In this document: piece after piece, positions 4,463-26,867 of the stretch
How the letters are laid out: every line of letters begins with the position of its first letter
Position numbering within the stretch: position 1 is the stretch's first letter
Origin: Pirellulales bacterium
Lineage (GTDB): Bacteria > Planctomycetota > Planctomycetia > Pirellulales > PALSA-1355
Assembly: GCA_963733035.1 (NCBI GenBank)
Contig: CAVTBU010000004.1
Location: forward strand, 288,001-352,000
Direction of reading: 5' to 3'
DNA length: 64,000 nucleotides
Notes under the pieces: model-generated
Seen by the model: only the letters and a program-made list of their open reading frames with translations
Database searches by the model: none
What the model was told of the DNA's origin: nothing
Translations under genes and position numbers: made by a program

Positions 4463-4491
4463 TCGTTGTTGCGTCACAAGAGAATTGCCAA

Positions 4492-5169
4492 ATGGTCCGG
4501 TTACTCGTCATTGAAGATCAGCCAAAGCTGCGGCGCAATCTGCAAGAAATGCTTCAGAACGATGGCCATCACGCGGTCACTGCCAGTACTGGCGAAGAGG
4601 GGTTCTACCTGGCGACGACGCAGTCATTCGACGGAATGATTCTCGACTTGTCGCTGCCGGGCCGCGATGGAATGGAAGTCCTAACGGATTTACGCAGCGC
4701 CGGTTTCGATAAGCCGATTCTCATCGTTACGGCCCGGGATGGCGTCAATGACCGGGTTTCAGGCCTCGACGGCGGCGGCGACGACTATCTGGTTAAGCCC
4801 TTCGCCCAGGCTGAGTTGTTGGCCCGCGTTCGAGCACTGTTGCGGCGCAGTACAAGCGATGCCGCAGTGACCTTGCGGTGTGCCGACGTCGAAGTTGACC
4901 TCTTGCGCCGCCGCGTCGTCCGCAACGGTACGGAACTTGAGCTAAGCCAGCGAGAGTTCGAATTGTTGGAATACCTGCTGCGCCATAAGAATAGCAATGT
5001 TACCCGCGACATGTTGGCTCGCGACGTGTGGAAGGAACCCCACGGCGTATTGAGCAATGCAATTGAAGTGTGCGTCAATGGACTGCGGAGAAAAGTCGAA
5101 TTCTCCGACAGTGGACCACTGATTCAGACGATTCGCGGCGTCGGTTATACCGTGAGGGACCAGACTTGA
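4492..5169 (+). CDS. OmpR-family response regulator (CusR/CzcR-like)
   Basis: REC domain (LVIED, ILDLSLPGRDG, DDYLVKPF) plus winged helix (LSQREFELL, IQTIRGVGY). An alternative start exists at 4459. Confidence 0.93.
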   Translation: MVRLLVIEDQPKLRRNLQEMLQNDGHHAVTASTGEEGFYLATTQSFDGMILDLSLPGRDGMEVLTDLRSAGFDKPILIVTARDGVNDRVSGLDGGGDDYLVKPFAQAELLARVRALLRRSTSDAAVTLRCADVEVDLLRRRVVRNGTELELSQREFELLEYLLRHKNSNVTRDMLARDVWKEPHGVLSNAIEVCVNGLRRKVEFSDSGPLIQTIRGVGYTVRDQT

Positions 5170-6587
5170 GTCGCTTGAGCATTCGCTGGCGAATCGCACT
5201 TTGGAACACGGCGGCCTTCGCCGTCATCCTGCTTGCCTTCGGGCTGGCAGTTTATTGTCTGCTTCGCAAAACGCACTACGATCAAGTCGACCGCCGCCTG
5301 CAGGCCCAATACAATAAAGTGGCCCAGCGCGATCGCGGCGGCTCCCAGTCAGGCGGCGAATTGCTGAGTTCCGGTAACAACCTGGCTTTTGTCATTGATG
5401 ACGGCGGTCAGGTTGTCGAGCACACGCCAACTTTGTCAAAGGCGGACATGGCTGTGGCCGCCTCGCCACGTGACTCCGCGCCTCGGTTTGACACCGCATA
5501 TTTGCCTACCGCCGGACATGTTCGTCGGCTGATCGGCAGGGTACCATCGTCGGCTTCACAAGGCACGATTGTGCTGATGGCACGGTTGGAACACGTCCAC
5601 GAAGAGCTCTGGGAAGTGATTCGTGCGCTCTTGATCACCGCTCCAATCACGCTGGGGGCTGCCGCGTCGCTCGCGTACTTCCTGGCGTACAAGGCGCTGT
5701 CGCCGGTCGATCATTTGCGGCAGATGACCGACGAAATCACCGCAGAACGGCTCGACCGCCGACTTCCGACACGAAATCCGGCCGACGAGCTCGGCCTGCT
5801 CGCGCAAACGATTAACTCGATGATCGCCCGGCTCGAACAATCGTTCAGCGAAATCCGACGTTTCACTTCTGACGCCTCGCACGAACTACGTACGCCATTG
5901 TCAATCATCCGCAGCGAGGCCGAGCTGGGAATGGCCACCAGCGACTGTCCGGACACGGCTCGAACGCGATTCGAGAGCATCGTCGAAGAATGCAATCGCC
6001 TGGCTAAGATGACAACGCAGCTATTGGTGCTCTGCCGCGAGGAAGCGGGCGTTGCGCAAATAGATCAACTACCCGTTCAATTGGGCGCGATCGTTTCTGA
6101 CTCGGTCGACGCGCGTCGAGGTCTTGCCGAAGCGAAGCGACAATCCTTGTCTGTCAATATTGAAGCCGACGTAATAGTGATCGGAAATGCTGACCGTTTA
6201 CGGCAAGTCGTGGACAACGTGCTGGAGAATGCGATCAAGTACACGCCTGAGGGCGGTCGCGTGAAAGTGACCCTGACCCGACAAAACGCGGACGCCGTGC
6301 TTTGCGTGCAGGACACTGGAATCGGCATCGATGCCGAGGACGTGCCGTCCATCTTTGATCGCTTTTTTCAAGCCGCCCAGGGAAGGCAGGACGCTGACGG
6401 CGCCGGCCTCGGCCTCAGCATCGTTAAGAGCATCGTGACTGCGCACCATGGTCGAATCGAGGTTCGAAGTGAACTCGACACGGGTTCGGTGTTTCGCGTT
6501 CTATTGCCTGCCTTCGACGTTGGCGCTTTGTCGCCCGACGATCGCAATACCATGGCAAACGGCAATCGAGCCCTGCCGAAGGAATAG
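5166..6587 (+). CDS. HAMP-domain sensor histidine kinase (heavy-metal-sensor-like)
   Basis: TTG start overlaps the regulator stop. Two TMs, HAMP (DELGLLAQTIN), H-box SHELRTPL, NAIKYT, DTGIGI, GAGLGL. Confidence 0.92.
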   Translation: MSRLSIRWRIALWNTAAFAVILLAFGLAVYCLLRKTHYDQVDRRLQAQYNKVAQRDRGGSQSGGELLSSGNNLAFVIDDGGQVVEHTPTLSKADMAVAASPRDSAPRFDTAYLPTAGHVRRLIGRVPSSASQGTIVLMARLEHVHEELWEVIRALLITAPITLGAAASLAYFLAYKALSPVDHLRQMTDEITAERLDRRLPTRNPADELGLLAQTINSMIARLEQSFSEIRRFTSDASHELRTPLSIIRSEAELGMATSDCPDTARTRFESIVEECNRLAKMTTQLLVLCREEAGVAQIDQLPVQLGAIVSDSVDARRGLAEAKRQSLSVNIEADVIVIGNADRLRQVVDNVLENAIKYTPEGGRVKVTLTRQNADAVLCVQDTGIGIDAEDVPSIFDRFFQAAQGRQDADGAGLGLSIVKSIVTAHHGRIEVRSELDTGSVFRVLLPAFDVGALSPDDRNTMANGNRALPKE

Positions 6588-6742
6588 CTAGTATTTCCCT
6601 ATTGGCCAGTATGAATTTGACACGGTGGGGACTGCGACGAAGGTGACTGGAAGTCCCCTACAGACGGCGCGAGAAGCCTTTTCTGCGGCAGGTTCCCATA
6701 CGACGTAGGCTTGGGGAAAGGGCGAGCAAAGTAGCGTGCGGC

Positions 6743-7408
6743 CTAGACGCGCAGCCAGGAACTACTGCGGGTCTGGCGGATTTCGCCGAGAATGCGATGG
6801 GTGATGGCCATCTCCACCAACTCTGCCAGCGACCGGGTTTGCAGCTTTTGCATAATGGCGGCACGACGCATCTCGACCGCCCGTTCTGAGATTTTCAACT
6901 TCGACGCGATCACCTTGTTCGGAGTGCCGGCCAAAAGCAACTGCAACGTTTCCTGTTCGCGTATCGTAAGTCGCCTGATCCGCTCGTCGATCGTCCCATA
7001 CTCCGATTGCTGCCGACGCCATTTGGCGTCCAGCGCGAGGGCTTTCTGAACGCGGTCGAGCAACAGCTCGCGCTCGAATGGCTTTTCCAGAAACTCGATA
7101 GCTCCGGTTTTCATGGCAGCCACGGCCATCGAGACGTCCGCGTGAGCCGTGATGAAAATCACCGGCAGTCGCTTGCCCTCGCGAATGAGTTGCTCATACA
7201 GCTCAAGACCATTCTGTTGGGGCATCTTGACATCGAGCACCAAGCACCCCGGCATGGAGGGATCATAGTACCGATGAAAGCTTTCCGCCGACGGAAACCC
7301 GCTCGCGACAAACTTCATTGCCCTAAGAAGCGCCGTCAGGGAGTCCAGCATTTGGCAGTCGTCGTCAACGACAAATACAGTCGGTCGATTGGTTGGCTTG
7401 GGAAACAT
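6743..7408 (-). CDS. FixJ-like response regulator (REC + LuxR HTH)
   Basis: VFVVDDD, CLVLDVKMP, FITAHADV, FLEKPF, and HTH LTIREQE..NKVIA..L.IS.RAVE.RRAAIMQKL. Confidence 0.92.
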   Translation of the reverse strand: MFPKPTNRPTVFVVDDDCQMLDSLTALLRAMKFVASGFPSAESFHRYYDPSMPGCLVLDVKMPQQNGLELYEQLIREGKRLPVIFITAHADVSMAVAAMKTGAIEFLEKPFERELLLDRVQKALALDAKWRRQQSEYGTIDERIRRLTIREQETLQLLLAGTPNKVIASKLKISERAVEMRRAAIMQKLQTRSLAELVEMAITHRILGEIRQTRSSSWLRV

Positions 7409-9050
7409 GGATTGCAGATCGTGGTAGACAGAAGCTGACGACAGCACCGCCGATGTTGCGATTGTCGCCCCACAATCGGCCATGATATCGATCGAGTATG
7501 GTACGACTGATGGCCAGGCCCATGCCTAGACCTTCCTGTTTGGTTGAGAAAAACGGAGCAAATGATTCTTCCGCGGAACCGGTTGGGAAACCAGGTCCCG
7601 TATCCGCGACTTCCACAAACACATTTCCGGCCGCGGCGTAGGTACGGATGTCGATCCGACGTTGCTTGCGCGGGTATTCCGTCAACGCCTGTGCCGAGTT
7701 CTGCACTAGATTGACCAACACCTGTTGGATCTCAAGTGGCTCGGCCATGACCGATGTCGCGTTGATACACAAGCGTACCGTTAGCTGGACATCGGCCTGT
7801 TCGAGTTGGGGGCGGCAAAGTTCGCACACCTCGCGAACCAAACCGTTGAGTTCGACGAGGGTCCCCCCGCCCGCTCCGGTTCGCACGAAGTTCCGCATAC
7901 GCCGTACGATCTGGCCGGCCCGCAACGCAGCCCGTTTCAACTGCGCGAGGGTCACACGTGTCTCGGCAACGTCGAGCGTGCCGTTTTCCGCCGACAGTTC
8001 GAGCACGTCGGCGTAGTTGGTGATCGACGCGAGCGGCTGATTGATCTCGTGCGCTAACCCGGTGGCCAGTTGTCCCAGCGCCGTGACGCGCGAAGCGTGC
8101 GCGAGCCCTGCCGAAAGCTCGCGCATCCGCTTCTCGGCAGCTTCGCGTTCGGCGATTTCGTGTTCCAATGCGCGATTCGCCTCGACAAGCTCGCCGGTGC
8201 GCTCGATCACTCGCGTCTCCAACGCGTCACGCGCCTCGCTCAACAGCTCTGCGGTCACGCGGTGTTGCGACTCGCTCTCGGAAAGCTTAGCGATTTGTTG
8301 TCGGATCAGGTTTAGCGCCGGCTGCAGAACGACGAAATAAACACCAATCAACAATCCGAGTACGGCCAGCATCGCGGCCACACCACACCAGCGCAGAAAG
8401 TCGACTTGCCGACGCGACGACGCTTCAAGCATGTCCACGACGCGTTCCATCCGCTCAAGATACAGCGGCTCTGCGGCAAGAACTGTATCCAAATCCGCCT
8501 GTGTCGCGGGGTCCCTCGGCGCGTCGATGGGCGACGCCGAGGCGGCGATCCGGCCGGCCGCTAGTCGAATGGCCTGCAACTTCGGTTCAAGCGCTAGCAA
8601 AGCCGACTCAATTTGGTCATCGGCGACGGGCTCCAAACCCAGTGTCGCGCTACCTTCGAGCAGCCCTTGATGGGCCGCGCTCCACTCGTCAATCGCGATC
8701 GTGAGCTGTTCGCACCGCGTCTCTCGTTCGTCTGCATCCGAATGAGTCGCCAGGGCAATTGCGTTCTTCGCGATCTTCTGACTAAGCATCCGCTGCCGAC
8801 CGGCCACGTTGATCGCCGGCGCATAGAAATTCAGACGGACTAGCTGCGGCTGAATAATTGCTTCGTCGACGACCACCAAGAGTGCCACCGCCAGCAGAGC
8901 CAACAGATAGCGACGCGAAAGCAAACGCACCAGTGCGAGCGGATCGGTTGGCGACGCGACTACTTTCAGGCAGCGGACGGTCGTCGAACGTGGGGTTTCG
9001 GTGCTCTGCGATGTGCGCATCCCCAAGGCATGTAGAAAACCGCGTTCCAT
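7365..9050 (-). CDS. Sensor histidine kinase with NarX/PilJ-type periplasmic nitrate/nitrite-sensing domain
   Basis: TM1 is followed by P-box-like AINVAGRQRMLSQKIAK, then TM2 and a coiled coil. H-box AHEINQPL, DTGPG, FFSTK.EGLGMGL. Exact start uncertain (about 9020-9050). Confidence 0.88.
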   Translation of the reverse strand: MERGFLHALGMRTSQSTETPRSTTVRCLKVVASPTDPLALVRLLSRRYLLALLAVALLVVVDEAIIQPQLVRLNFYAPAINVAGRQRMLSQKIAKNAIALATHSDADERETRCEQLTIAIDEWSAAHQGLLEGSATLGLEPVADDQIESALLALEPKLQAIRLAAGRIAASASPIDAPRDPATQADLDTVLAAEPLYLERMERVVDMLEASSRRQVDFLRWCGVAAMLAVLGLLIGVYFVVLQPALNLIRQQIAKLSESESQHRVTAELLSEARDALETRVIERTGELVEANRALEHEIAEREAAEKRMRELSAGLAHASRVTALGQLATGLAHEINQPLASITNYADVLELSAENGTLDVAETRVTLAQLKRAALRAGQIVRRMRNFVRTGAGGGTLVELNGLVREVCELCRPQLEQADVQLTVRLCINATSVMAEPLEIQQVLVNLVQNSAQALTEYPRKQRRIDIRTYAAAGNVFVEVADTGPGFPTGSAEESFAPFFSTKQEGLGMGLAISRTILDRYHGRLWGDNRNIGGAVVSFCLPRSAIHVSQANQSTDCICR

Positions 9051-9227
9051 TGGCGTAGCGGCATTGTTCGTACGTTGGTCTGAAGTAGACGAACTTGTTT
9101 CCTGGAAAGCAGATGCGCTCGACGGACAAAACGCGGCCGGAGATGGCCGTGCCCACCGACGCGGCAGCGGTTGCCTTGAAGGACAGCAAGCCCGCGGCCG
9201 CCGAGCTGCCCTGCCGGCCCATGGCGC

Positions 9228-9262
9228 TTCGGATCTCCGAAAACCTCCTTCGGGTTTCCGAA
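9228..9262. promoter_or_regulatory. Two tandem palindromes TTCGG-N4-CCGAA; candidate response-regulator operators
   Basis: TTCGGATCTCCGAA (9228-9241) and TTCGGGTTTCCGAA (9249-9262) have a 21-bp period and lie in the divergent kinase/narK intergenic region. Confidence 0.6.
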
Positions 9263-9286
9263 GAATCGCACGGGTCGCGAGGAGGT

Positions 9287-9302
9287 GGGTACGGCGCTTG
9301 CT
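9287..9302 (+). promoter_or_regulatory. Candidate sigma54 (-24/-12) promoter of the narK operon
   Basis: GGGTACGGCGCTTGCT matches GG-N10-GC with TTGC, about 55 bp upstream of the narK ATG. Confidence 0.45.
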
Positions 9303-9356
9303 TCCCGCCGCCAGAACAACTTCCCGTCACCGAATAGCGTCGGAGCGATTCTGGAC

Positions 9357-10730
9357 ATGCAAACTAGCGGCAAGGCCACGCGAATCAGATTGTGCAACTT
9401 TTCTACCCCGCAGATGCGCGCGTTCCACATGTCGTGGTTGGCGTTCTTTCTATGTTTCTTCGCTTGGTTCGGCATTGCACCGTTGATGCCAATCGTGCGC
9501 GAGGAGATGGGGCTGACGAAGTCGCAGGTCGGTTGGTGCGTGATCGGATCCGTGGCGATTACTGTGCTGGCCCGGCTGTTCGTCGGCTGGCTGTGCGACA
9601 AGATCGGCCCGCGCCGAGCCTATGCTGGCCTGCTTGTGGCCGGATCGCTGCCCGTGATGGGCATCGCGCTCTCCAGTGACTTTCAGACGTTCCTCTTGTT
9701 TCGCGTGCTAATTGGCGCGATCGGCGCATCTTTTGTCATTACGCAGTACCACACTTCGCTAATGTTCGCCGGCAACTGCGTCGGTACGGCCAACGCCACG
9801 ACCGCCGGTTGGGGAAATCTCGGCGGCGGCGTGACGCAGTTCGTGATGCCGCTCGTTCTCGCCATGTTCGTCGGCGTGCTGGGATTCTCTTCGGCGGCCG
9901 GCTGGCGACTGTCGATGGTCGTAGCTGGCGTAGCCTGTGCTTTGACCGGCGCGGCGTATTTTATGCTCACGCAGGACACACCCGAGGGCGACCTGAAGCA
10001 GCTACGCGCCGCCGGTAAACTGGCCCCGTCGAAGGATGCCCATGGCGCGTTTCTGGAAGCTTGCCGCGACAAGCGCGTGTGGGCGTTGGCAATTATGTAC
10101 GGCGCCTGCTTCGGCATCGAGTTGACCGTGAACAACGTGGCCGCACTATACTTCGTCGACTACTTCGCCGCCTTTCAGGAAATGGAGACCATTCAGGCCG
10201 CCAAGTACGCCGGCCTGATCGCCGCCTCGTTCGGACTGATGAACCTGTTTGCCCGCACGCTTGGAGGCTTCTTCGGCGACAAATGCGGCGGCGTCTGGGG
10301 ACTCTCGGGCCGCGTCAAATGGCTGTTTGTCACCCTCTTCTTCGAAGGCCTGCTATTGATGCTGTTTTCGCAGATGAACGTCCTGGCGCTGGCAATCCCG
10401 GCGCTAGTCGTCTTCAGCCTCTTCGTACAGATGTCCGAAGGCGCGACGTTTTCCATCGTGCCCTTCGTGAATCGCAGGGCCTTGGGATCGGTGTCGGGAA
10501 TGGTGGGGGCCGGCGGCAATGCGGGGGCGGTAGCGGCCGGCTTTCTGTTCAAGGCCGAAGGGATTTCCTGGCCAACGGCATTCCTGGTCATCGGCGCGGC
10601 CGTGACCACGATTTCATTTCTGAGCTTCGCCGTCCGATTTGGCGAGGGAGCCGAGGCCGCGTTTGACCACCCATTCGAACCGTCCCGACGTCCCACCATC
10701 GCGTATCAGCCCGTCCTTCAGGAGTCCTGA
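9357..10730 (+). CDS. narK: MFS nitrate/nitrite transporter (NarK/NRT2 family)
   Basis: RAFHMSWLAFFLCFFAWFG, nitrate signature GTANATTAGWGNLGGG, FGIELT, ARTLGG, GMVGAGGNAG; about 12 TMs. Confidence 0.93.
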   Translation: MQTSGKATRIRLCNFSTPQMRAFHMSWLAFFLCFFAWFGIAPLMPIVREEMGLTKSQVGWCVIGSVAITVLARLFVGWLCDKIGPRRAYAGLLVAGSLPVMGIALSSDFQTFLLFRVLIGAIGASFVITQYHTSLMFAGNCVGTANATTAGWGNLGGGVTQFVMPLVLAMFVGVLGFSSAAGWRLSMVVAGVACALTGAAYFMLTQDTPEGDLKQLRAAGKLAPSKDAHGAFLEACRDKRVWALAIMYGACFGIELTVNNVAALYFVDYFAAFQEMETIQAAKYAGLIAASFGLMNLFARTLGGFFGDKCGGVWGLSGRVKWLFVTLFFEGLLLMLFSQMNVLALAIPALVVFSLFVQMSEGATFSIVPFVNRRALGSVSGMVGAGGNAGAVAAGFLFKAEGISWPTAFLVIGAAVTTISFLSFAVRFGEGAEAAFDHPFEPSRRPTIAYQPVLQES

Positions 10731-10748
10731 GCGAAGGAAGTCCCCGTT

Positions 10749-13584
10749 ATGGCTAACCCGGTCGAAGTCTGGAAGGCCGAAAAGCACGGGCTAGACGTGT
10801 GGACCGACGTGGAGCGCCACGCGGTCGCCGGCACGCCGATGAAGCAAATCGATACGGCCGACCTGGAGCGCATGAAATGGTACGGCTTCTTCTACCGCAA
10901 GCGCGACGAGCCTGGTCGGTATATGAACCGCATCCGTATCACGGCTAATGAAATGACCGCCGCGCAGGCCAAGGAGATCGCCCGGCTGGCCTATGAGTTC
11001 GGCCACGGCATTGTCGACGTCACCACCCGCGCCAACGTGCAGATTCAAGGGATTTCGATCGAGCGCCTGCCCGAAGTGCGCGAGCGGCTCGAGGCAGTCA
11101 AGCTGACGTCCAAGCAAACGGGCCACGACAACATCCGCAATGTCTTCGGCCACCCGTTCAGCGGACTCATGCCTGAGGAGCTGATCGACACTCGCGACTT
11201 GTGCCACCAGTTGACGGCGTTGTTTGTCGACAGCCGAGAGTACTCCGACCTGCCGCGCAAAATGAACATCTGCATGAACGGCACGAATGAGCACTCGGCG
11301 CATTTCTGGACGCAGGACATTAGCTATCTGGCCACGAGAACGGACAACGCCGAAGTGTTGTTTCGCGTGCTAATTGGCGGGACGCAGGGGCAGAACCCAC
11401 ATCTGGCGTGGCACTTGCCGGTGTTGGTGGCTCCGCATCAAGTTGTGGACGTGACTCGATCGATTCTCGATTTGTATCGAGCGAAGGGTACCCGGGACAA
11501 GCGCAGCGTGGCCAGGTTCTGTTTCTTGATGGATGCCATCGGCGTCCAGGGCGTTCTCGCCTGGCTGGCGCAAGATCTCGACTTTCCGCTGGTACCATGT
11601 CACCGCTCTCCCGCGCCCTCGCTGGCGCACGATGAGCTAGTCGGCTGGTTTCCGCAGGCCGATCGTCAAATGTGGACGATGGGATTGTGCGTTCCCTTGG
11701 GACGCATGACCTGGCAACAACTTGAGGGATTGGGAGTGTTGGCCGAGCGTTGGGGCGACGGTGGGCTGCGAACCACGCACGAACAAGGTATGGCGGTCGT
11801 CAACATACCGACCCGGCACAAACAAGCGGCGCTGACTGACGCCGCCGCATTAGGGCTGAGCATCCATGCCGATGCGCTGGATCGCAACACGATGGCCTGC
11901 ACGGGCAGCCAGTTCTGCAATATCGCGGTCACGGAAACCAAGGGGCACATGTTCCAGTTGCTGGAGAAGCTCCGCAAGAAGCAAGTTCGCCTGGAAGGCA
12001 TTCGCATTCACATGAGTGGCTGCCCTTCGAGTTGCGCAGCACTTCACGGCGGATATCGGATTGAAGGGCGTGCGGGTTCGGCGTTTGCTGGGCACGCGTG
12101 AAGGGTTCGACGTCTACCTCGGCGGCGGTATCGGAGACGGCGTACAGATGGGCCGTACGTTTCGACTCGGCGTTGACATCGATCAACTCCCCACCTTGAT
12201 CGAAGAAGTCGTCACGCAGTACTACCTGTCTCACAAGCCGGGCCAGACATTCAGCGCTTATTGGCGCGAACAACTTCCCGCGGACAGCTCCGTCAAAGTC
12301 TCGGACGACGATTTCAATCCGCCAATTTGGACCTGCGAGAAGTGCCGTCACGAGCATGTCGGCGTCGACCCGCCCGTCTTTTGTCCCTCGTGTGCTGGCC
12401 TGCGACGGTATTTCGCTCGGCTCGAAGATGCAGCTGACCGGAACGGGTCGTCCACCGAGGGGGAAGCTGCGGCTGCGGAAGGCCCTGCCCGCAGTGATGG
12501 ATTCGTGTTCGCCGCCGAGGAATCGTCGATACCAGAGGGTGCGGGATTGGATGTCAAGGTTGGCGGAAAAGAGCTGGCACTGTTTCGTGTCGGTGGCAAT
12601 ATCCACGCGATCGACGCGATCTGTCCCCATGAGGGCGCCCCGCTGTCGCAGGGTGCGCTACAAGAAGGAGTCGTCACTTGCCCGTGGCACGGTTGGACGT
12701 TCAACGCCTGCTCCGGTTGCAGCATCGATCCGCCCAACAACGATGTCGGCCACTACGATACGCTCGTCGAGGAGACAGGCGTGTACGTGAAAGTAACGTC
12801 CGAACGACTCGCGTCCAGGGCCGCGATGTCGGTACGCCGCGCCGTGAAGCCGGTCGAAGCGCTGCTGCGTCTCTCCCAGATCATCGACGAAGCGCCCGAC
12901 GTGCGGACGTTTCGATTTGACAATCGCGCCGGCGTGCTGCCGCTGGACTATCCCGGCAGATTCGTCAAAATTTGCGTGTGCGCCGAATCGCAGGAGGTCC
13001 GGCGCAGCTTCACCATTAGTTCGTCGCCCCATGAACGAGCGTTTGTCGACCTCACAATCAAGCGGAACCCGAGCGGCGTGGCATCGCAGTGGCTGTTCGA
13101 GCACGCTCGAACCGGCGACGAGTTCAAACTAAGCGGGCCGTACGGCGGGTTCTATTTCGACGGCGAACAGCATTGCGAGCCGCTGGTGCTCGTGTCGGCC
13201 GGCAGCGGCATCACGCCGATGATGAGCATCGCTCGTTGGTGGCGAGCCCAAGATCTTGAAAACCCGTGTGCGTTCTTCCATGGCGCGCGGACGGCCGACG
13301 ACATTTTGTTTCACGCCGAATGTACACAACTGGCCAGTGAGTCGGTCAACTTCGCATACCATGTGTCGTTGTCTTGTCCCAACGAATTCTGGCAGGGATT
13401 GAACGGTCGGCTTACCCCAGAAACCTTGATACGGCAAGTCCGTGAACCGATGCTATGCCGCTACTTCCTTTGCGGTCCCAATGATTTCATGGATTGCCTC
13501 CGCAATGGGCTGTCCGCGGCCGGCGTGCCAGCCCATCGAATCCACACGGAACAGTTCCACAATTCCGCCGCGGTCAAGGCATGA
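10749..13584 (+). CDS. nirA: Siroheme nitrite reductase (NirA-type) fused to rubredoxin-like, Rieske [2Fe-2S] and FAD/NAD(P)-binding reductase domains; split by one frameshift near 12035
   Basis: NirA motifs KWYG, TTRANVQ, DNIRN, LPRK, ACTGSQFC and GCPSSC continue as AQHFTADIG in the other frame. Then CEKC-x12-CPSC, CPH..CPWHGW, RSFTISS, GSGITP, LCGP, TEQF. Confidence 0.85.
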
Positions 13585-15317
13585 CTTCGCTTCCCATCAT
13601 CAATGTCGCGATCACTTCAGCGAGCACCTCCGGCGGCCACAAGGCCGAGCTCAGCGGCGAATTCTCGTTGGTTGAACTCTTGCTTCGCGAGCAGCAGGAC
13701 CTAACGGCCGTCGAGCGGTTCGCACGCCACCACGACACGGGCGCCTTTCCAGCAGCCGAGAAACAGTATCGTTCCTTGATGCCAGCCACTTCACCTGGGC
13801 CGGGCCAGCAATACGGGTTTGACGTTGCGCTTGACCGTTGCAGTGGCTGCAAGGCATGCGTCACGGGCTGCCACGTGTTGAACGGCCTTGACGAAGACGA
13901 GACCTGGCGCGACATCGGCTTGCTGGTAGGCGGAACGCGCTCGTCGCCGGTCGCGCAGCACGTAACCACGGCCTGTCATCATTGCCTAAGCCCGGCGTGC
14001 ATGACTGCCTGCCCGGTAAACGCGTACGAAAAAGACGCCCACACCGGCATCGTCAAGCATCTCGATGACCAGTGTTTCGGCTGTCAATACTGCACGATGG
14101 CTTGCCCTTACGAGGTTCCCAAGTATCACGCGGCCAAGGGCATTGTGCGCAAGTGCGACATGTGTGCCACGCGTTTGGCCGCCGGCGAGGCCCCGGCTTG
14201 CGTGCAGGCTTGCCCGCACGAGGCTATCTCCATCCGCTTGGTGGACGTGCGGGAGGTGATTGAGGACGCCGAGGCCGCGAACTTCCTGCCGGCGGCGCCG
14301 GATCCGCAAATCACGTATCCGACGACCACCTATCGAACGCGACTCGTATTTCCCCGCAATATGCTGCCGGTCGACTATTTCCAGGTGAATCCGCAACATC
14401 CGCATTGGCCGCTGGTCGTGATGCTCGTGCTAACGCAACTCTCGGTGGGTGCCTTTGCCGTGGGTATGGTGCTCGACGAAATTCTCCACGGCAGCCTGTC
14501 TGCCACAATGAGGCAGTTCCATGGTCTGACCGCGCTAGTATTCGGGCTCGTGGCAATGGCGGCCAGCACGTTTCACCTTGGCCGGCCTCAATATGCCTAC
14601 CGGGCGATTCTCGGATTGCGGCATTCGTGGATGAGTCGCGAGATCCTGGCGTTTGGACTCTTTGCCGCCTTGGCATGTACCTACGCCGGCGCGTTGATGC
14701 TGCCGGTGCCATGGATGCTGGGCCGTCGAGTGCTGCCGTGGCTCGGCATTGGCGTCGTGGCCGCGGGCGGCGCCGGGATCGTCGGATCGGTGATGATCTA
14801 TGCCACTCTCGGACGCGACTATTGGAGCTACACGCGCACCTCCCTGCGCTTTTTGCTCACGGCGGGCCTCCTGGGCACGGCCACGGCGTGGCTTACTGCC
14901 GCGTTGCTTTCCCTGGTGAATCCCTTAGTAGGAACGGAGGCAATCCTCGCGTCCGTGGGAAGGATACTCTGTCCAACGCTGTTGGTGCTGGCCTCGGTAA
15001 AGCTGCTCTGGGAGGCCTCGCTGCTCCGGCACCGGATGTCGCGCTCCATGACCCAGTTGAGACGCTCTGCGACGCTGATGACGGGAGAGCTGTCGAACTA
15101 TACTTTGGCCCGATTTGCCACAGGCCTGGCAGGCGGCATCGTGATTCCGGCAATCCTGCTCTGGAGAATGCGATCGGGAGACGCACCTGCCGATCCGGTC
15201 GCACTGGCGGCGCTAACGGCAGTCCTCTTTTCGGCCTGCCTGACCGGCGAGCTTCTGGAACGCTATCTCTTTTTCGCCGCGGTGGCCGCGCCGCGGATGC
15301 CGGGAGCCGTTCGCTGA
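13581..15317 (+). CDS. DmsB-like multi-[4Fe-4S] domain fused to DmsC/NrfD-type membrane anchor
   Basis: ATGA overlap with the upstream gene. Cys groups [49 protein letters not shown]. About 8 TMs with [25 protein letters not shown] and [10 protein letters not shown]. Confidence 0.9.
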
Positions 15318-17530
15318 TGGGATCAAATGATGCCAAACCGGGCTCTGGGCTCCTCGGCGTGGCCCGCACGGGACCGCTGACACGAGAGCTGCTGCTCGTG
15401 CCGGGCGACTTCGGACTGGGCCATGTTCCCGCTAAGGCGCAGCCAGATGCGACAACGCGCACAGTGTGCGGCTATTGCTCGACGGGCTGCAGTCTAGACG
15501 TGCACTTGAAGGATAATGCGGCGGTCGCGCTTTCGCCGACGGTCGACCATCCGGTGAACCTCGGCATGGCCTGTCCCAAGGGATGGGAAGCGCTTAGCGT
15601 CTTGCAGTCGCCAGACCGAGCCGGAACGCCGCTGTTGCGCACCGATGACGGGCCGCTGTCGCCAGTAAACTGGGAGCAGGCGGCAAACGCGTTCGTCGTG
15701 CAAATGAAGCGCATTCAGGCAGCCCATGGCAACGAGGCCATCGCTTTTCTCAGCACTGGCCAAATCGCCACCGAGGAGATGGCCCTGCTCGGGGCAGTGG
15801 CCAAGTTTGGCATGGGCATGGTGCACGGCGACGGCAACACGCGGCAGTGCATGGCCACTGCGGTGGTCGCCTATCAGGAATCGTTTGGCTTCGACGCGCC
15901 GCCATTTACGTATGAAGATTTCGAGTTGTCAGACGTCTTGGTCTTCGTGGGCAGCAACGTCTGCATCGCGCACCCGATCATGTGGGAGCGTGTGATGCGC
16001 AATCCGCACAATCCCGAAATCGTGGTGATTGATCCCCGCGCGACGGAAACCGCGATGGCGGCCACGCAACACCTTCCGGTGCGACCCAAATCGGACTTGA
16101 CGTTGCTTTACGGCGTCGCCAGGCTGCTCGTCGAGCGGGGCTGGATTCACGCGGAGTACATCGCCGCACACACCCACGAATTCGAGGCATTTCGAGAATT
16201 CCTGATTGCATTTCCGCTGGAGCGCGTCGCCGCGGAAACCGGGATCGCCGCCGGCAAGCTCGAGTGGCTGGCCCGCACGATCCACGAAGGGCAGCGTGTT
16301 TCATTCTGGTGGACGATGGGCGTCAATCAAAGCCACCAAGGAGTGCGCACCGCGCAGGCGCTGATCAATCTTGCGCTGATGACCGGCAATATCGGCCGGC
16401 CAGGCACGGGCGCCAATTCGATTACCGGGCAGTGCAATGCCATGGGGTCGCGACTGTTTAGCAATACGACGAATCTGCTGGGCGGTCGCGCGTTCGACGA
16501 TCGTGTACACCGCCGTGAAGTCGCCGACATCCTCGAAATCGACGAACGACGCATTCCGCGCAACAAGGGCTGGTCGTACGACCGCATCATGGAAGGAATT
16601 CTCGCTGGCAAGATCCGCGGCCTCTGGGTCATCTGCACGAACCCGGCCCATTCGTGGATCAACCAGTCGCAAGCCCGCGACATTCTCGACCGGCTTGATT
16701 TCCTCGTCGTGCAAGACATGTACACCACGACCGAAACCGCCGAAATGGCCGATCTAGTCCTACCCGCCGCAGGCTGGGGAGAAAAGGAAGGCACATTTAT
16801 CAACTCAGAGAGGCGAATTGGCTTGCACAAGAAAGTCGCGCATGCTCCAGGTGCTGCCCTTTCCGACTTCGCGATTTTCCAATTGTTGGCGGAGTATTGG
16901 GGATGTGGTGAGATGTTTCGCAAGTGGCAGTCACCCGAGGCCGTTTTCCAGATCCTCAAGCGCCTGTCGGCCGGCCGGCCGTGCGACTTCAGCGGGATCG
17001 ATGATTATCAGATGCTCGACGGCGCGGGCGGGATTCAATGGCCGTACCCAACTCAAGACCCGGACGATCGGCCGCAGCGCCGGCTGTTCAGCGACGGGCG
17101 ATTCTACCATCCGGACGGCAAGGCCCGGTTCGTGTTCGAAGAAACGCATGCGATGCCCGAGCAACCAAACGAACATTACCCATTCTTGCTGCTCACCGGG
17201 CGCGGTTCGGCCTCGCAGTGGCATACCCAAACCCGCACGGCGAAGTCCGCCGTGCTGCAAAAGCTCTACTGCCGCGACGCGTATGTTGAAATCGCGCCTG
17301 CCGACGCTTCGGAGCTCTCGATCGTGCGCGGTCAATGGGTGCGCATCTCCTCCCAGCGAGGAAGCATTCTCGCCAAGGCCGTGATCATGCCGACCGTGCA
17401 GCCCAAGCAACTCTTCGTGCCGATGCACTACACTCAGACCAACCTGCTGACCGACGCCGTATTCGACCCCTACTCTCGGCAGCCGGCATACAAAGCCTGC
17501 GCGGTAAGGATCGATGCCCTGGCGCACTGA
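15317..17530 (+). CDS. nasA: Molybdopterin nitrate reductase catalytic subunit (NasA/NarB/NapA family), no Tat signal
   Basis: ATG overlaps the upstream [15 protein letters not shown] [4Fe-4S] motif, NTRQCM Mo-ligand Cys, [46 protein letters not shown]. Confidence 0.88.
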
Positions 17531-17879
17531 CCACCTGGACCAGATTCTTAGACGCGGTTCGTCTTCCGTCGCCACGACTCATAAAGCCCTGCCGCAACGA
17601 GCCTTGCAGCATGGACGCTTTCAAGCATGGGGCAGCCGGTGATCCTGGTGCTGCGCAATTACAATCTGGGGCGATTGCGACCGGCGACTTCCGCTATAAC
17701 TACGAGAAGTGGTGGCTGCCATCGAAGCCGATCGTGATGCGGCTATGGGGTCCCTGGTCCTAAGTAACAAGCGTTCGGTTCGCGCATCGGATTTGATCGG
17801 AATTGAATTTCGACAGGCTGATCCTCGACGGCTAGCCATGCCATAGTTTCCGCAACCCCAATTCGCAGGAGTCGCCAAA

Positions 17880-18311
17880 ATGCAAACAGATCGACGACAC
17901 ATGCTTGCGTTCGTTTTGTCGCTAGTTGTGGTGGCAAGTCCATTGACCGTGGTTGCGGGCGACCCCGCCGAGGCCCCCCTCGCTGATCGTCTTATTGGAA
18001 CCTGGGTCCTGGTCGGCACACCGGAAAAGGTGGGCGAAGTCCCCAAGGCCGGCGGCCGACTCAAGTTCTTCACCGGCAAATGTTGGTGCATCACCCAAGC
18101 CGATCCAGCGACCGGTAAGGTGCGGTTCCATCATGGCGGAACCTACAGCCTGGATGGCAACAAGATGACGTCGGTCGTCGACTACGCCGGCGAGTCGACC
18201 GAATTCCGCTTAAACACGACCAGCAACTTTGAAATCAAAGTCGACGGCGACACCTACACGCAAATCGGCCTCGACAATCCCTACACCGAAGTCTGGAAAC
18301 GCGTAAAGTAA
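17880..18311 (+). CDS. Small secreted hypothetical protein, lipocalin-like beta-barrel
   Basis: Signal peptide, LIGTWVLV, GGTYSLDG, EVWKRVK. Confidence 0.7.
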   Translation: MQTDRRHMLAFVLSLVVVASPLTVVAGDPAEAPLADRLIGTWVLVGTPEKVGEVPKAGGRLKFFTGKCWCITQADPATGKVRFHHGGTYSLDGNKMTSVVDYAGESTEFRLNTTSNFEIKVDGDTYTQIGLDNPYTEVWKRVK

Positions 18312-19249
18312 CTCGTCAAGAGACTAACGCCCTTTACCCCCTTGGAATTTACAGCGCTGCGACAATCGGCTGTCCGTGCCACTCTGCGCCTACGCTGCCA
18401 GTGCGCAACGCGCGGCCGGCGAGTCTTGGTCCGCGGCCGCCAGGCCAGCGTCGTGGGTCTTGCCAATCTGCAGGCGAGTATGCCGCGGCGGCTGGCCCGA
18501 TTGCAAGCGTGCGAGCGCGCGCGAATTCTTCGGCGTCTTGACCAACCTCCAAGTCGGTCGACGACTTGCTCAATCTGTCGTTACTTGGCCCGGTTCGGAA
18601 TTCGCAAAGTTTTCGAGTGGCCTTTTTTCGGGCTGAAAGTTGCGCGCACTTTTCTTTTCGCCTTTTGTAACCTGAAAAATGACATATGTCGTAGCCCGCA
18701 GCTTTCGCATTTTGCCCGAAATGAAACATGACGGTCCTCCGCGCGTCCCCTGTGCAGAATTTGCCGACCGTAGGCTAGCCCAACGGCTGGCTCGATTGAT
18801 AGAGGCAAAGTTTTGGAGGGGCCTACAACACGCGGCACGGCAGGAAGAATACGAGCAAGACGCCGCAATGCAGAGTCGCTACCAGTTGCAGCCGTGAAGA
18901 TCCACTGCCGCCATCGACGTTGCGGCCGAACTGCGCCGAGCGGGCTCGGCGCCACGCAAGCCCGTAGCGCGCGATGCGCAACGACCGCCGCTTCCCGCGG
19001 CTCGACCCTTTCGGGCGACCAACTTTTTTGCCCGGAATTCTCTGGACAAAGCTAGCGGGTTCCTTTACTCTGACGGGTGGCGTGTGGGCCGCCTCCTTTT
19101 GGATCGTTTATTTTTCGCGTGGCCCACGCGGACGAAAATCGGGTCGACAGTTGGCAGGACGAAGAGGCTCGCGAGGGCAACGCGAGAGTCCGGCCGAGCG
19201 AAGTGCGTCTTATTTTCGTTATCGCGTTCCTACGGACAGAGGAAGAGCC

Positions 19250-22200
19250 ATGTCGACCTATCGAACGGTCCTGCGCGGACCAAGCGCGGTTGCGCGCCCC
19301 CAGCGTTTTGCACGTTCCCGCAATTTCGCTTCCAGCCGGTTTTCCAGCCTCAGGCTCGAAGCCCTCGAACAGCGTCACCTGCTGACGGCCACCGTGGTCG
19401 AAGTGACCACCACCCAGGACGTCATCGATCCGAACGACGGCCTCGTCTCCTTGCGCGAAGCCGTGCTCGAAGCGAACGCCTCGCCGAATGACTACCAGAT
19501 CGTGCTCCCCGCCGGCACCTATACCTTGACAATCCAAGGGGCGAACGAAGACGCCGCGCTCACCGGCGACTTGGACATTCTCAACAGCGGCAGCGTCACG
19601 ATCGTCGGCGCCGGCGCCGACACGACGACGATCGACGCCTCGGGGCTGTTCGATGCCGGGCTTGGCTACGGCGACCGGATCTTTGACGTCCAAACCAGCG
19701 CGGCTCTCGATCTGACGGGCCTTACGCTGACAGGCGGGAGTGCTCCAACGGCTAGTACTTCGTCCGGCGCAAGCGGCGGAGCTATCCGAAACGCTGGCGG
19801 CCAATTGACGGTAATCGATTGCACGCTTTCGAACAACGACGCTCCCCTTGGCCTAGGCGGCGTGATCTACAACCTCGGCCAACTGACAGTCACGGGCAGC
19901 ACTTTCAGCGGCAACACCGCGCACTCCGCCGGCAGCGCCGTATACACGAATTCTTCACAATCCAGCTCGATCGGCAGTAGTGAATTCCTGGGCAATTCGA
20001 CAACGGTCGGGAGCGGTGCCCCCATCTACCAAGATGGAGGCCAACTGTCCATCACGGGCTGCTCAGTCTCCGGTACTGATGGCGACGGGATCGCCAATTA
20101 TTATGGTCAGCTGACGATCGTTGACAGCGACGTGACAGGCAATAGTGGGAGTGGACTTCACAACGGCGGCGGAGGCGTCCTAACTGTCGTTGACAGCCTG
20201 ATCTCCGAAAACGCCGCTTCAGGAATCTTCAACGATATGAGCTCGCAACTGGAGGTGGTGGGTTGCACGATTTCCAACAACACCGGCGGCGCCTATGGCG
20301 GCGGAATCTACACGACGGGCCCAACGACCATTACCGCCAGCACCATCACTGGCAATACGGCCCGGGCGGGAGGGGGAATCGCTGCAAACAACGAGTTCCT
20401 TCCCGGAAATGTAGTTTCGATTGTGAACAGCGTGATCTCCGACAACGTGGCGACCGGACATGGCGCCGGGGGAATCTTAAGCGAAGGGGAAATGACGATT
20501 TCCGGCAGCACGATTTCCGGCAACCACGCCGCCGGTGAAGGAGGCGGAATTGTCAAGTTCGTCATAGGGAATCCCACCACCTTGACGATCAGCAACAGCA
20601 CGGTCCAGGGCAACTCGGCCACCACCGGCGGAGGAATCAAAAACGATGGCTCTCCGCTGACCATCACGGAAAGCACCATCTCAGACAACACCGCCACGCT
20701 TGACGGAGGGGGAATTCTCAATAGCGGCGTGTGGTTACTCGAGACGAAAATCATCAACAGTACCGTCTCGAACAATAGTGCGAACCGCGATGGCGGTGGC
20801 GTGTATAGTGGGAGACGGTTGACGGTCTCCAATAGCACCATCACCGGCAATCGTGCGGATGCCGATGGTATCGACGGCGGCCTGGGTGGCGGATTTGCCC
20901 TGACGCCTAACGCCGTTGCCTTGCTGCAAAATACGATTGTGGCCGGCAACCTTCGCGGTGCCGACCCCGGCGCGGCCGACAGCGATATCGAGCTGTCCGG
21001 CGGCCAGGTCGATCCGGCCAGTTCCTATAACCTCATCGGCGACCCCAATACGGCCGGTGGCCTGGTGAATGGCACCAACGGCAACATCGTCGGCGACGCG
21101 ACTGGGAATGCGCTCGACATCAATGCGATTCTCGATCCAAATCTGGCCGACAATGGTGGGCCGACGCTGACGCACAAGCTTGTCGATGGCAGCCCGGCCA
21201 TCAACGCGGGGGATCCGGCGTTCGATCCGAACGCCACCGACCCGCCGACGTTCTTCGACCAGCGGGGCGTGGGCTTCCCGCGGGTCAAGAACGGCCGCTT
21301 GGACATCGGCGCTTACGAGGCCGACGCCAACCTGATTGGGCCGGGCAATGTGATCACGGTGGGCACGTTCGACGACTCGTTGGCCGTCGACGGAGTGTGG
21401 TCGCTGCGCGAGGCGGTGATGTACGCCAACAGCCATCCCGGCGACTTCACCATCCAGCTCCCCGCCGGCACGTACACGCTCACCCGCCAGGGAGCGAATG
21501 AAGACGCGGCGCTGACCGGCGACCTCGACATTCTCAACAACGGCAGCGTCCAGATCGTCGGCGCCGGCGCCGACACAACGACGATCGATGCCTCGGGATT
21601 GTTCGACGCCGGACTCGGCTACGGCGACCGGCTGTTTGATGTACACGGCGCCACGCTAAGCCTCGACGGCCTTACGCTCACTGGCGGTAGCACGCCGACG
21701 TCTGGTGACGACGCGGACACGAGCGGTGGGGCCATCCGTAATTCCGGTGGTGAACTGTTCGTCACCGGCAGCACGCTCTCGAACAACACGGCCAAGGGCA
21801 GCGGCGGTGGAATCTATAGTAGCGAAGCGGTTGTCACCATCGACGGCACGACTATCTCAAGCAACGCCGCCGGAAGTGGCGGTGGAATCTATTGCAATCA
21901 GAGCCAGCTAACGGTTCGTAATTCCACACTTTCTGGAAACTCTGGAGAAGGCGGAGCAATCAGTAGCCACTTAGGCGAAACGTCGATCATTGACAGCACG
22001 CTGTCGGACAACAATGCGCCCTACGATGGCGGCGGCATCCTGAATTTCAGCAGTGATCTTCGTGTCGTCCACACGATGTTCGCCGGCAACACCTCGCAGT
22101 TCGTCGGCGGAGCGATCTACAGCCGTTCAGTTCTGCGACAAGACGTTTCGGTGGTCGATAGCACTTTCGTTGATAACTCCGCTGCCGGCAGTGGTGGTGG

Positions 22201-26709: not shown

Positions 26710-26734
26710 CGCTTGATTCCCTGGAAGACCTGTA

Positions 26735-26768
26735 GTACAACTGTATGGTACGTTTGTACCACAGTCAA
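26735..26768 (-). promoter_or_regulatory. sigma70 promoter of tetR overlapped by an inverted-repeat operator
   Basis: Minus strand TTGACT-17 bp-TACAGT. Inverted repeat GTACAA (26735-26740) ... TTGTAC (26754-26759). Confidence 0.7.
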
Positions 26769-26867
26769 GATGGCACTGCGAGAGCGTGAAAAACTGGCCC
26801 GGAAGCGGCCTTTCTTGCGAAGCGGCAGAGGCGATCTCGACCTTCTCCGATATGAGGAGTTCTTGCC

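Follow-up and report, generated by a model that had tools for sequence, protein, structure and literature searches.

A candidate nitrite reductase joining a NirA-type domain to rubredoxin-like, Rieske and FNR-type domains in a nitrate-assimilation operon of Pirellulales

Introduction

Assimilatory nitrite reduction is taught as occurring in two designs, namely the ferredoxin-dependent NirA and the NAD(P)H-dependent NirBD. A locus in the assembly GCA_963733035.1 of a Pirellulales bacterium raises the question whether there might be a third one. The stretch of DNA analyzed here, called the window in the following, comprises 64,000 nucleotides of contig CAVTBU010000004.1 (positions 288,001 to 352,000, forward strand). 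At positions 10749 to 13584 of the window two ORFs (open reading frames) carry the parts of a NirA-type siroheme enzyme, a rubredoxin-like domain with four cysteines (Cys4), a Rieske domain and an FNR-type flavin module. It has to be asked whether these parts belong to one gene, which reaction its product catalyzes and from where the electrons are drawn. As laid out below, the fusion protein is very likely an assimilatory nitrite reductase, and its family would then represent a third, modular design, built from a NirA core, a rubrerythrin-type iron site, a Rieske domain and an FNR-type flavin module.

One gene in two reading frames

The two ORFs, 10749-12101 (450 amino acids) and 12016-13584 (522 amino acids), overlap on the plus strand. 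Searches with Pfam models placed NIR_SIR_ferr (in two stretches) and NIR_SIR in the first, and Rieske (E 1.4e-20), FAD_binding_6 (E 3.5e-13) and NAD_binding_1 (E 2.7e-12) in the second. In relatives, the same domains are encoded in a single open frame, with a length of 948 amino acids in a member of the same family (G016) and of 943-952 amino acids in a member of the same order, but another family (G022), both of which read ...GCPSSCAQHFTADIGLKG... at this site. Where the window has AGT TGC G CAG CAC (12030-12042), these two and a further relative (G007) have AGC TGC GC(G/A) CA(G/A) CAC. The window is short of 2 nucleotides, i.e., one GC unit of a GCGCGC run, directly behind the codon of the fourth cluster cysteine (12033-12035), and the site forms a perfect 12-nucleotide palindrome, GCTGCGCGCAGC, in the relatives.

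A survey of related loci from species-representative genomes, limited to the best 80 of 152 loci and to flanks of only 1.5 kb, with some contigs ending within, showed that 78 of the 80 are in frame across the break site. The site is also spanned by two contigs of relatives, the first in X2 and the second, of 904 nucleotides with 55 differences, in X3; both show "GC put in behind 12033" relative to the window. Downstream of the break, 515 codons are open and conserved, with a ratio of non-synonymous to synonymous substitutions (dN/dS) of 0.12; this ratio could not date the break, as dS was saturated. Because of the intact single frames in G016 and G022 and the 78 loci in frame, the two ORFs are regarded as one gene, and we hold with high confidence that the organism carries it intact, with about 945 codons.

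A word-indexed database search with the G016 protein yielded 824 matches, of which the best 120 were inspected. In this set, 119 proteins of 939-1035 amino acids contain NIR_SIR, NIR_SIR_ferr, Rieske, FAD_binding_6 and NAD_binding_1, the remaining one being a partial protein. The labels given to them in the databases are unspecific ("Rieske 2Fe-2S domain-containing protein," "Sulfite reductase [ferredoxin]," "ferredoxin-nitrite reductase," "precorrin-3B synthase"), and among their sources are Pirellulales, Maioricimonas rarisocia, Thalassoroseus pseudoceratinae and Thalassoglobus. To judge from these entries, the family is widespread and annotated only generically, and cultured carriers exist, as indicated by the source names Maioricimonas and Thalassoroseus. 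These results bear out what an initial annotation, made from the DNA alone, had read from the window, i.e., one gene of about 945 amino acids with a 2-nucleotide frameshift and the order NirA, rubredoxin-like Cys4, Rieske and FNR-like module without a plant-type ferredoxin domain, the latter agreeing with the Pfam matches; the count of homologs of the same architecture that it had proposed came to the said 119 of 120.

The catalytic domain

The fusion gene starts with ATG at 10749, with GAAGGAAG upstream. The four cysteine codons for the [4Fe-4S] cluster (11898, 11916, 12021, and 12033; C-x5-C ... C-x3-C) all lie upstream of the break, and the corresponding residues C384, C390, C425, and C429 do not vary among the 59 full-length homologs that were aligned (A1; residues are given in P0001 numbering throughout). 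Conservation reaches 0.96-0.99 over residues 421-450, a stretch that spans the break, and matches to PDB entries extend to about residue 490-505. In the first ORF, PF03460 (102.5 bits, two stretches) and PF01077 (111.8 bits) both score above their cut-offs; the intact relatives also show the second stretch of NIR_SIR.

The part before the break matches tobacco nitrite reductase (3b0j; 223 bits, E 5e-65, residues 3-429), and residues 3-490 match tobacco and spinach ferredoxin-nitrite reductases with E-values of 1e-79 to 1e-71. The motif of the substrate pocket is PRKMN: DLPRKMNICMNG of the window aligns with NLPRKWNPCVVG (PRKWN) of the tobacco enzyme, and K171 and N173 are invariant. K-x-N is the signature of nitrite reductases, K-x-K that of sulfite reductases (SiR), which suggests nitrite as the substrate here. 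Moreover, the fusion gene is the only PF01077 gene that is not SiR-like in the assembly under study (G000), in G016 and in G073. In a FastTree phylogeny of 119 NirA domains, P0122, P0126, and P0124 join the window family in a single clade on a long branch (support 100).

The carrier domains

Behind the NirA domain, and joined to it by a short conserved segment, lies the Cys4 domain, whose ligands C530, C533, C546, and C549 are invariant in the 59 homologs. In the G016 copy, this domain has a counterpart in the Fe(Cys)4 domain of rubrerythrin (1ryt/1b71; E 5.6e-5 over 31 residues), and zinc ribbons reach only E >= 0.4. The model PF21349 scores above its cut-off in several relatives (27.0 bits in P0121, 28.3 in P0136, 63.7 in P0135; also in P0173). 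The Rieske domain is recognized by PF00355 (73.4 bits, cut-off 20.3) and PF13806 (37.2 bits, cut-off 27, E 3e-9), whereas the NirD/NasG model TIGR02378 gave 59 bits, below its cut-off of 74.65. The Rieske ligands C628, H630, C647, and H650 are again invariant. On either side of this domain, the linkers (residues 556-585 and 688-706) are poorly conserved and of variable length.

In the FNR-type module, PF00970 (50.2 bits) and PF00175 (47.7 bits) exceed their cut-offs, and the motifs RSFT, GSGxTP, CGP and E938-x-F940 are invariant in the 59 homologs. The closest named families of this module, all of them below cut-off, are GbcB, the Hcr-like NADH oxidoreductase and the reductase domains of flavohaemoproteins. 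Pfam found no plant-type ferredoxin domain Fer2 (PF00111) in the second ORF, and none is listed for the 120 inspected relatives. Regarding charge, the NirA domain is basic with a pI of 8.4, while the Cys4 (5.2) and Rieske (4.7) domains are acidic, as in ferredoxins.

The operon and its NirB-NirD counterparts

The fusion gene is the second of four genes (narK, the fusion gene, fer4/dmsC, and nasA; Table 1), and the same four genes were found in the same order in all six genomes that were fetched. Stop and start codons overlap as ATGA between the fusion gene and fer4/dmsC and as TGATG between fer4/dmsC and nasA; the nitrate-assimilation operon to which the fusion gene belongs is translationally coupled. 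Over the 80 surveyed loci, narK lies upstream in 61 and fer4/dmsC downstream in 62.

Among 31 relatives, homologs of the Fer4/DmsC protein occur in 15 and the fusion in four, the assembly under study included. Three fusion-less relatives, one each of the same genus (G001), family (G006) and order (G019), were inspected, and in all three the slot between narK and fer4/dmsC-nasA is taken by a NirB-NirD fusion, composed of the domains Pyr_redox_2, Rubredoxin_C, Fer2_BFD, NIR_SIR_ferr, NIR_SIR and Rieske_2. It measures 1032 amino acids in G001 and 1033 in G006; for G019 the listed ORF has 1567 amino acids, as it runs upstream over narK. The NirD part of these fusions has full Rieske ligands (CPH...CPLH). 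Because NirB-NirD fills the same operon slot, the fusion gene of the window is a non-orthologous replacement of the classical NAD(P)H nitrite reductase, and the shared slot argues for an NAD(P)H-dependent assimilatory nitrite reductase.

Distribution of the family and of related fusions

The fusion family is common in Planctomycetota and Vicinamibacterales, where it occurs in forms of different length. The full-length architecture NirA-Rd-Rieske-FNR (Rd standing for the rubredoxin-like domain) was found in 39 of the 80 loci, 30 of them from Planctomycetota, eight from Acidobacteriota/Vicinamibacterales and one unnamed. NirA-Rd-Rieske accounts for 28 loci (18 Acidobacteriota, 10 Planctomycetota) and NirA-Rd for eight (four Planctomycetota, three Acidobacteriota, one Myxococcota), with five truncated or odd loci (four Planctomycetota, one Myxococcota). 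Both narK and fer4/dmsC adjoin 20 of the 28 NirA-Rd-Rieske and three of the eight NirA-Rd forms. The short forms are scattered over the tree, in which Acidobacteriota form one nested clade.

A library of representatives at 50% identity, in which only P0066 and P0121 are full-length members, contains several other combinations: NirA-Rd-FNR (P0164, P0173), NirA-Rd-Rd-Pyr_redox_2 (P0135), NirA-Rieske-Rd-Pyr_redox_2 (P0136), Rieske-Rieske-NirA-Rd-Pyr_redox_2 (P0124), NirA-Rieske (P0141, P0163, P0254) and NirA-Fer2 (P0142). In the independent fusions P0124, P0135, P0136, P0164, and P0173 an Rd-type domain sits between NirA and a flavin reductase. Since the other Rd-bearing fusions are placed elsewhere in the NirA tree than the window family clade, this arrangement has arisen more than once. 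Such a recurrence would be expected if the Rd-like domain were the carrier touching NirA.

Further NirA-type fusions were noted in P0166, P0211, P0177, P0249, P0240, and P0137, which comprise NasA-NirA, formate/nitrite transporter-NirA, rhodanese, NirA-ThiS-PAPS reductase and cNMP-binding-BFD-FAD-NirA proteins. P0127 (372 amino acids, Rieske-FNR only) was considered as a free-standing reductase and rejected; it starts with Leu in the middle of a domain and is probably a fragment.

Electron supply

Taken together, the domains suggest the following mechanism. FAD in the C-terminal FNR-type module would accept a hydride from NAD(P)H. From there, electrons would pass singly via the Rieske [2Fe-2S] center and the Fe(Cys)4 site, in either order, to the [4Fe-4S]-siroheme, and the NirA-type domain, carrying siroheme and [4Fe-4S], would reduce nitrite to ammonium. 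The Cys4 domain would be fixed at that end of NirA where ferredoxin is expected to dock, and the acidic Rieske and FNR domains would shuttle on their flexible linkers. On balance, we favor NAD(P)H, acting via the protein's own FNR-Rieske-Cys4 chain, as the main route, with donor and sequence of carriers predicted from the domain make-up. The fused carriers make a dependence on free ferredoxin less likely.

Several observations weigh against this route or against the assignments it builds on. The FNR module is missing in 36 of the 80 loci, many of them with the same neighbors. In the Vicinamibacterales locus L058 (about 3560-3740), the gene ends after the Rieske domain, but some 45 codons for the C-terminal end of FNR (CFLCGP...HTEQ) are preserved in a different frame; because of this remnant it is concluded that the module was lost. 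No close FNR copy was found elsewhere in three FNR-less genomes, the sole match, in one of them, being 31% identical (E 2e-18). With 36 loci lacking the module and no close copy in these genomes, the family can work without a fused entry for NAD(P)H. Input from NAD(P)H is optional in the family, another donor must exist, and the fused FNR may not be the main one. Domain order varies among the independent fusions, with Rieske before Rd in P0136 and at the N-terminus in P0124, which is why the linear order says nothing about the wire. PF21349 reaches only 16.9 bits in the window, below its cut-off of 26.5, and iron in the Cys4 site, although suggested by the rubrerythrin match, is a prediction. 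Finally, every match to an NCBIfam equivalog stays below cut-off, including that to the ferredoxin-nitrite reductase model NF007125 (370.5 bits, cut-off 594); because these cut-offs were missed, the protein is best described as NirA-like, but outside the curated families.

The initial annotation had called the enzyme self-sufficient and had proposed a wire leading from NAD(P)H to the siroheme. That the enzyme does the job of NirBD is supported by the slot it shares with NirB-NirD in G001, G006, and G019. Self-sufficiency and the order of the wire are predictions, the former being complicated by the 36 loci without the module.

A different supply would be provided by quinol. The obvious alternative donor is Fer4/DmsC, which has the look of a quinol dehydrogenase module of the NrfCD/DmsBC type. 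Here, Cys4 and Rieske would mainly plug NirA to this membrane protein, which would feed both NasA and NirA from the quinol pool. The FNR module would then serve as an optional second way in, or as a valve linking NAD(P)H with that pool. Quinol-driven nitrite ammonification through NrfCD is established biochemistry, and Fer4/DmsC resembles DmsB, NrfC and HybA plus DmsC. Its gene directly follows in the 62 loci mentioned above, among them the 20 NirA-Rd-Rieske and three NirA-Rd loci, its start codon overlaps the stop codon of the fusion gene, and the FNR module was repeatedly lost, with no copy in trans in the three genomes searched. On the other hand, Fer4/DmsC is present in 15 of the 31 relatives and also stands beside NirB-NirD fusions, which have their own NADH site. 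As a partner it fits NasA alone, following the A-B-C arrangement common in the DMSO-reductase family, and the FNR module is intact, with invariant motifs, in the 39 full-length loci. We consider a mainly quinol-fed enzyme unlikely.

Both entries might also be combined. In this case, the four-gene cluster would build a membrane-tethered machine for the conversion of nitrate to ammonium, which NAD(P)H would enter via FNR and quinol via Fer4/DmsC, with Rieske and Fe(Cys)4 as a hub for NasA and NirA. Such a two-entry machine would explain the constancy of Cys4 and fer4/dmsC, the loss of FNR and Rieske without replacement and the occurrence of NirB-NirD with a true Rieske domain in the same place. 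To our knowledge, a cytoplasm-facing, quinol-linked supercomplex of assimilatory nitrate and nitrite reductases has not been described, and we put this idea forward only tentatively, as a doubtful extension.

Still less probable is a role of the FNR-Rieske tail that is primarily directed at nitrate reductase via Fer4, with NirA using soluble ferredoxin and the Cys4 domain being a structural zinc ribbon. As stated in two reports on Paracoccus, the Rieske protein NasG also carries NADH electrons from NasB to the nitrate reductase NasC (PMC5424462, PMC4724949); the Rieske domain of the fusion may therefore serve NasA, too. The Rieske domain of the fusion does match models of the NirD/NasG type, as seen from the PF13806 and TIGR02378 values given above, and the Rieske and FNR domains are both held by long variable linkers. 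However, the Cys4 domain is closer to the rubrerythrin iron site than to any zinc ribbon, and it recurs exactly between NirA and flavin modules in the Rieske-less fusions P0164 and P0173. Furthermore, NirA-Rieske fusions outside a nitrate reductase context exist (P0141, P0163, P0254), and NasA already has a dedicated Fe-S/membrane partner. These points make the NasG-like role improbable.

The frameshift and the substrate reconsidered

The interruption at 12036 is not the only one in this assembly. Its rpoB falls into two frames, which match positions 3-326 and 325-1237 of the model, and both genes for the DNA polymerase III alpha subunit (dnaE) are split as well, while rpoC is whole. The breaks in rpoB and dnaE resemble losses of 1 nucleotide in short homopolymers. 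AcrB-family genes are broken in five of 16 cases in this assembly (at least eight breaks), compared to none of 12 in G016, and one of the broken copies lies in the window (Table 1). Because rpoB, both dnaE genes and these AcrB-family genes are also frameshifted, the 2-nucleotide gap in the fusion gene is in all likelihood an assembly artifact, and split genes in this assembly should generally be treated as likely artifacts. Two other approaches were without result. The ratio of GCGCGC to GCGC as an error signature (0.071 in the assembly, compared to 0.084 in controls of higher and 0.054 in controls of lower G+C content) was uninformative, and a count of frameshifts by synteny with G016 had only about 11 kb of syntenic sequence, too little to use.

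If the frameshift were real, it might mark a fresh pseudogene, a phase-variable gene, two separate proteins or a -2 ribosomal slip on GCAG that restores the frame, and as read from the sequence, such a slip on GCA-G would yield exactly A-Q. No public sequencing run contains the assembly (best share of words 0.15), and no RNA run is listed for it, which leaves some room for a real lesion. In addition, P0123, from another assembly and 87% identical to the first ORF, has the same 2-nucleotide loss, and L105 and L036 are without one G and one C, respectively, within the same few bases, which could indicate a mutational hot spot. Yet the lesions in the four assemblies are not alike, nor do they follow the tree, in which P0123 groups with the intact L028 and not with the window. 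Breaks in the essential rpoB and both dnaE genes deprive breaks in this assembly of biological weight. The first ORF alone would be without the last roughly 80 residues of the catalytic domain of the only candidate nitrite reductase beside an intact narK and nasA, and 78 of 80 relatives need no slip. A real frameshift is thus very unlikely, and programmed frameshifting or phase variation as the leading explanation was rejected, since the lesions differ and lie off the tree and essential genes are broken too. As an observation on the site as such, four assemblies show different small deletions at the palindrome (window 12028-12040), be it from a site-specific sequencing or assembly error or from a mutational hot spot.

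That the protein is a sulfite reductase or another siroheme enzyme is extremely improbable: one relative bears the source name "Sulfite reductase [ferredoxin]" and others that of a "precorrin-3B synthase," the CobG model TIGR02435 falls just short of its cut-off (233.9 of 234.8 bits) and Mycobacterium tuberculosis NirA (1zj8) matches with E 6e-50, but the plant nitrite reductases match far better (1e-79) and sulfite reductases only with E of about 1e-20, the motif is K-x-N and not K-x-K, the narK/nasA context is conserved, the operon slot is common to NirB-NirD, and the genome has a separate SiR-like siroheme gene (578 amino acids, with PRKFK and TGCPNGCARP). The "NirA" of M. tuberculosis itself turned out to be such an enzyme rather than a nitrite reductase.

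Comparison with known systems

The presumed reaction of the fusion is that of NirBD and NasB-NasG, with which it has in common a flavin plus NAD(P)H site, a small Fe-S center, [4Fe-4S]-siroheme and a Rieske-type domain. They are put together from other folds and in another order. The flavin module is of the FNR type and C-terminal, whereas that of NirB is an N-terminal Pyr_redox_2; the place of the BFD-like [2Fe-2S] domain of NirB is taken by a rubrerythrin-type Cys4 domain; and the catalytic domain falls in the NirA clade, with only 41 bits for the nirB model TIGR02374 (cut-off 578). Neither Pyr_redox_2 nor BFD domains were found by Pfam in the two ORFs, and the identity between the Rieske domain and its NirD counterpart in G001 is only 27%. 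With NirA from plants and cyanobacteria (PDB 3b0g, 2akj), the fusion shares the four cysteine ligands and the PRK-x-N motif; it differs from these enzymes by about 440 additional C-terminal residues with three redox domains.

A described analog is NIRFU from the algae Micromonas, Ostreococcus and Bathycoccus, which combines NIR, rubredoxin and an FNR/cytochrome-b5-reductase-like part; it was reported in silico in 2017, with "structure and function not known" (PMC5344333). Like the fusion of the window, NIRFU has a NirA-type enzyme followed by a rubredoxin-like domain and a FAD/NAD module, whereas it is eukaryotic, plastid-targeted and without a Rieske domain. In the Atlas, an 812-amino-acid Chlorophyta cluster with NIR_SIR and FAD_binding_6 was second-nearest (score 0.88), which can serve as a lead only. 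Because P0164 and P0173, which have the same make-up, belong to another NirA clade, next to NirA-Fer2, the NIRFU-type fusion arose independently.

Regarding its carriers, the fusion resembles Rieske oxygenase chains. The FNR module is nearest to GbcB, Hcr-like proteins, MmoC, PaaE and BenC, the Rieske domain to the dioxygenase ferredoxins 5bok, 2qpz and CarAc, and the common logic leads from NAD(P)H via flavin and Rieske ferredoxin to a terminal enzyme. Unlike reductases of the PaaE/Hcr/GbcB type, the fusion is without a plant-type [2Fe-2S] domain, its Rieske domain is fused before the reductase, and the acceptor is a siroheme enzyme instead of an oxygenase. The Cys4 pattern W-x-C-x2-C-x12-C-P-x-C is that of the C-terminal domain of rubrerythrin (1ryt, 1b71), here attached to a siroheme enzyme. 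In rubrerythrin, electrons reach the catalytic metal site by way of the Fe(Cys)4 domain.

Full-text searches of the literature, mostly excluding subscription journals, turned up neither a publication on a NirA-rubredoxin-Rieske-FNR protein nor biochemical work on such fusions. This agrees with the initial annotation, which knew of no characterized example of what could be a third architecture. Given hundreds of database entries and the described analog NIRFU, the architecture is neither rare nor unseen.

Planctomycetota and Vicinamibacterales abound in soils, sediments and waters, and in many of them the nitrate-assimilation operon contains no candidate nitrite reductase other than the fusion. 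If NAD(P)H is used directly, it would be a compact six-electron reductase in a single polypeptide, useful for enzymology and engineering, and nirA matches in metagenomes, now taken as ferredoxin-dependent, would need another reading. The graded series NirA-Rd, NirA-Rd-Rieske and NirA-Rd-Rieske-FNR also offers natural domain deletions for the study of electron supply to siroheme enzymes.

Neighboring genes

Table 1. Coordinates of the fusion gene, its domains and neighbors, and of the other features discussed. Positions refer to the window unless a locus (L) or contig is named.
Feature	Position	Strand	Remarks
NirA-type siroheme/[4Fe-4S] domain, fusion gene before the break (residues 1-429)	10749..12035	+	Pfam; match to 3b0j
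Break	12033..12037	+	Single G (12036) behind TGC 12033-12035, GCG or GCA in relatives; CAG CAC TTC then in +1 frame
NirA domain, final part behind the break (QHFTADIGLKGVRVRR...)	12037..12279	+	Most conserved stretch of the whole protein
Rubredoxin-like Cys4 domain, probably rubrerythrin-type	12328..12414	+	W-x-C-x2-C-x12-C-P-x-C; PF21349 weak; 1ryt/1b71
Rieske [2Fe-2S] domain	12505..12792	+	CPHEG...CPWHG, between two variable linkers; PF00355, PF13806
FNR-type module	12868..13584	+	FAD_binding_6 12868-13152, NAD_binding_1 13189-13503, C-terminal E-x-F, TGA 13582-13584
narK-type nitrate/nitrite MFS transporter	9285..10730	+	MFS_1; start GTG 9285 or ATG 9357
fer4/dmsC	13581..15317	+	Fer4_11 and DmsC; DmsB/NrfC-like multi-[4Fe-4S] domain fused to DmsC/NrfD-like membrane domain
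nasA-type molybdopterin nitrate reductase	15317..17530	+	Without twin-arginine signal; Molybdop_Fe4S4, Molybdopterin, Molydop_binding
Two-component pair upstream of the cluster	6743..9050	-	Histidine kinase 7365-9050 (NCBIfam), LuxR-type regulator 6743-7483 (Response_reg and GerE)
AcrB-family RND transporter gene	39209-42348		Divided over at least three frames (profile positions 2-542, 546-803, 844-981)
Frameshifted rpoB and both polymerase III alpha genes	G000:C5:2072557-2076212, C5:2556813-2559928, C5:291238-294149		Outside the window
NirB-NirD fusions	L107 2991-6089; L109 2708-5809; L108 within 2046-6749	L109: -	1032/1033 amino acids in L107/L109; L108 with the same domains

The narK product matches TIGR00886 with 285 bits, below the cut-off of 311.7, and the nasA product matches the NasA and NasC models with 456 and 449 bits, likewise below their cut-offs. 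Fer4/DmsC matches the NCBIfam models for DmsB, HybA and NrfC-like proteins, all below cut-off. Its Fe-S domain is soluble and has no signal peptide, and hydropathy indicates about eight helices in the membrane domain. This composition suggests that NasA and Fer4/DmsC form a cytoplasm-facing, membrane-anchored and possibly quinol-linked assimilatory nitrate reductase. The two-component pair is kept beside the cluster in G016, G022, G001, G019, and G006 and likely regulates it; the overlap of the kinase and regulator ORFs stems from the use of maximal ORF starts. A scan of 8900-18400 for promoters and terminators gave nothing above shuffled sequences, and an Rfam search of the whole window gave no matches.

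An FNR-like match about 8 kb before the window (G000:C4:279448-280146) was examined and rejected as a candidate, as it belongs to an unrelated protein of Fer4-SCP2-FNR-Fer2 type. This 828-amino-acid protein (G000:C4:277969-280455; L023 1469-3955) contains Fer4, SCP2, FAD_binding_6, NAD_binding_1 and Fer2, and its FNR part is 35% identical to that of the fusion. Downstream of the operon, 18974-26014 encodes a protein of 2346 amino acids with a right-handed beta-helix, NosD-like parts and Chlamydia PMP repeats, which is probably a giant surface protein. It is followed at 26065-28235 by a divergent pair of genes for a TetR/CecR-type regulator and a cytochrome P450.

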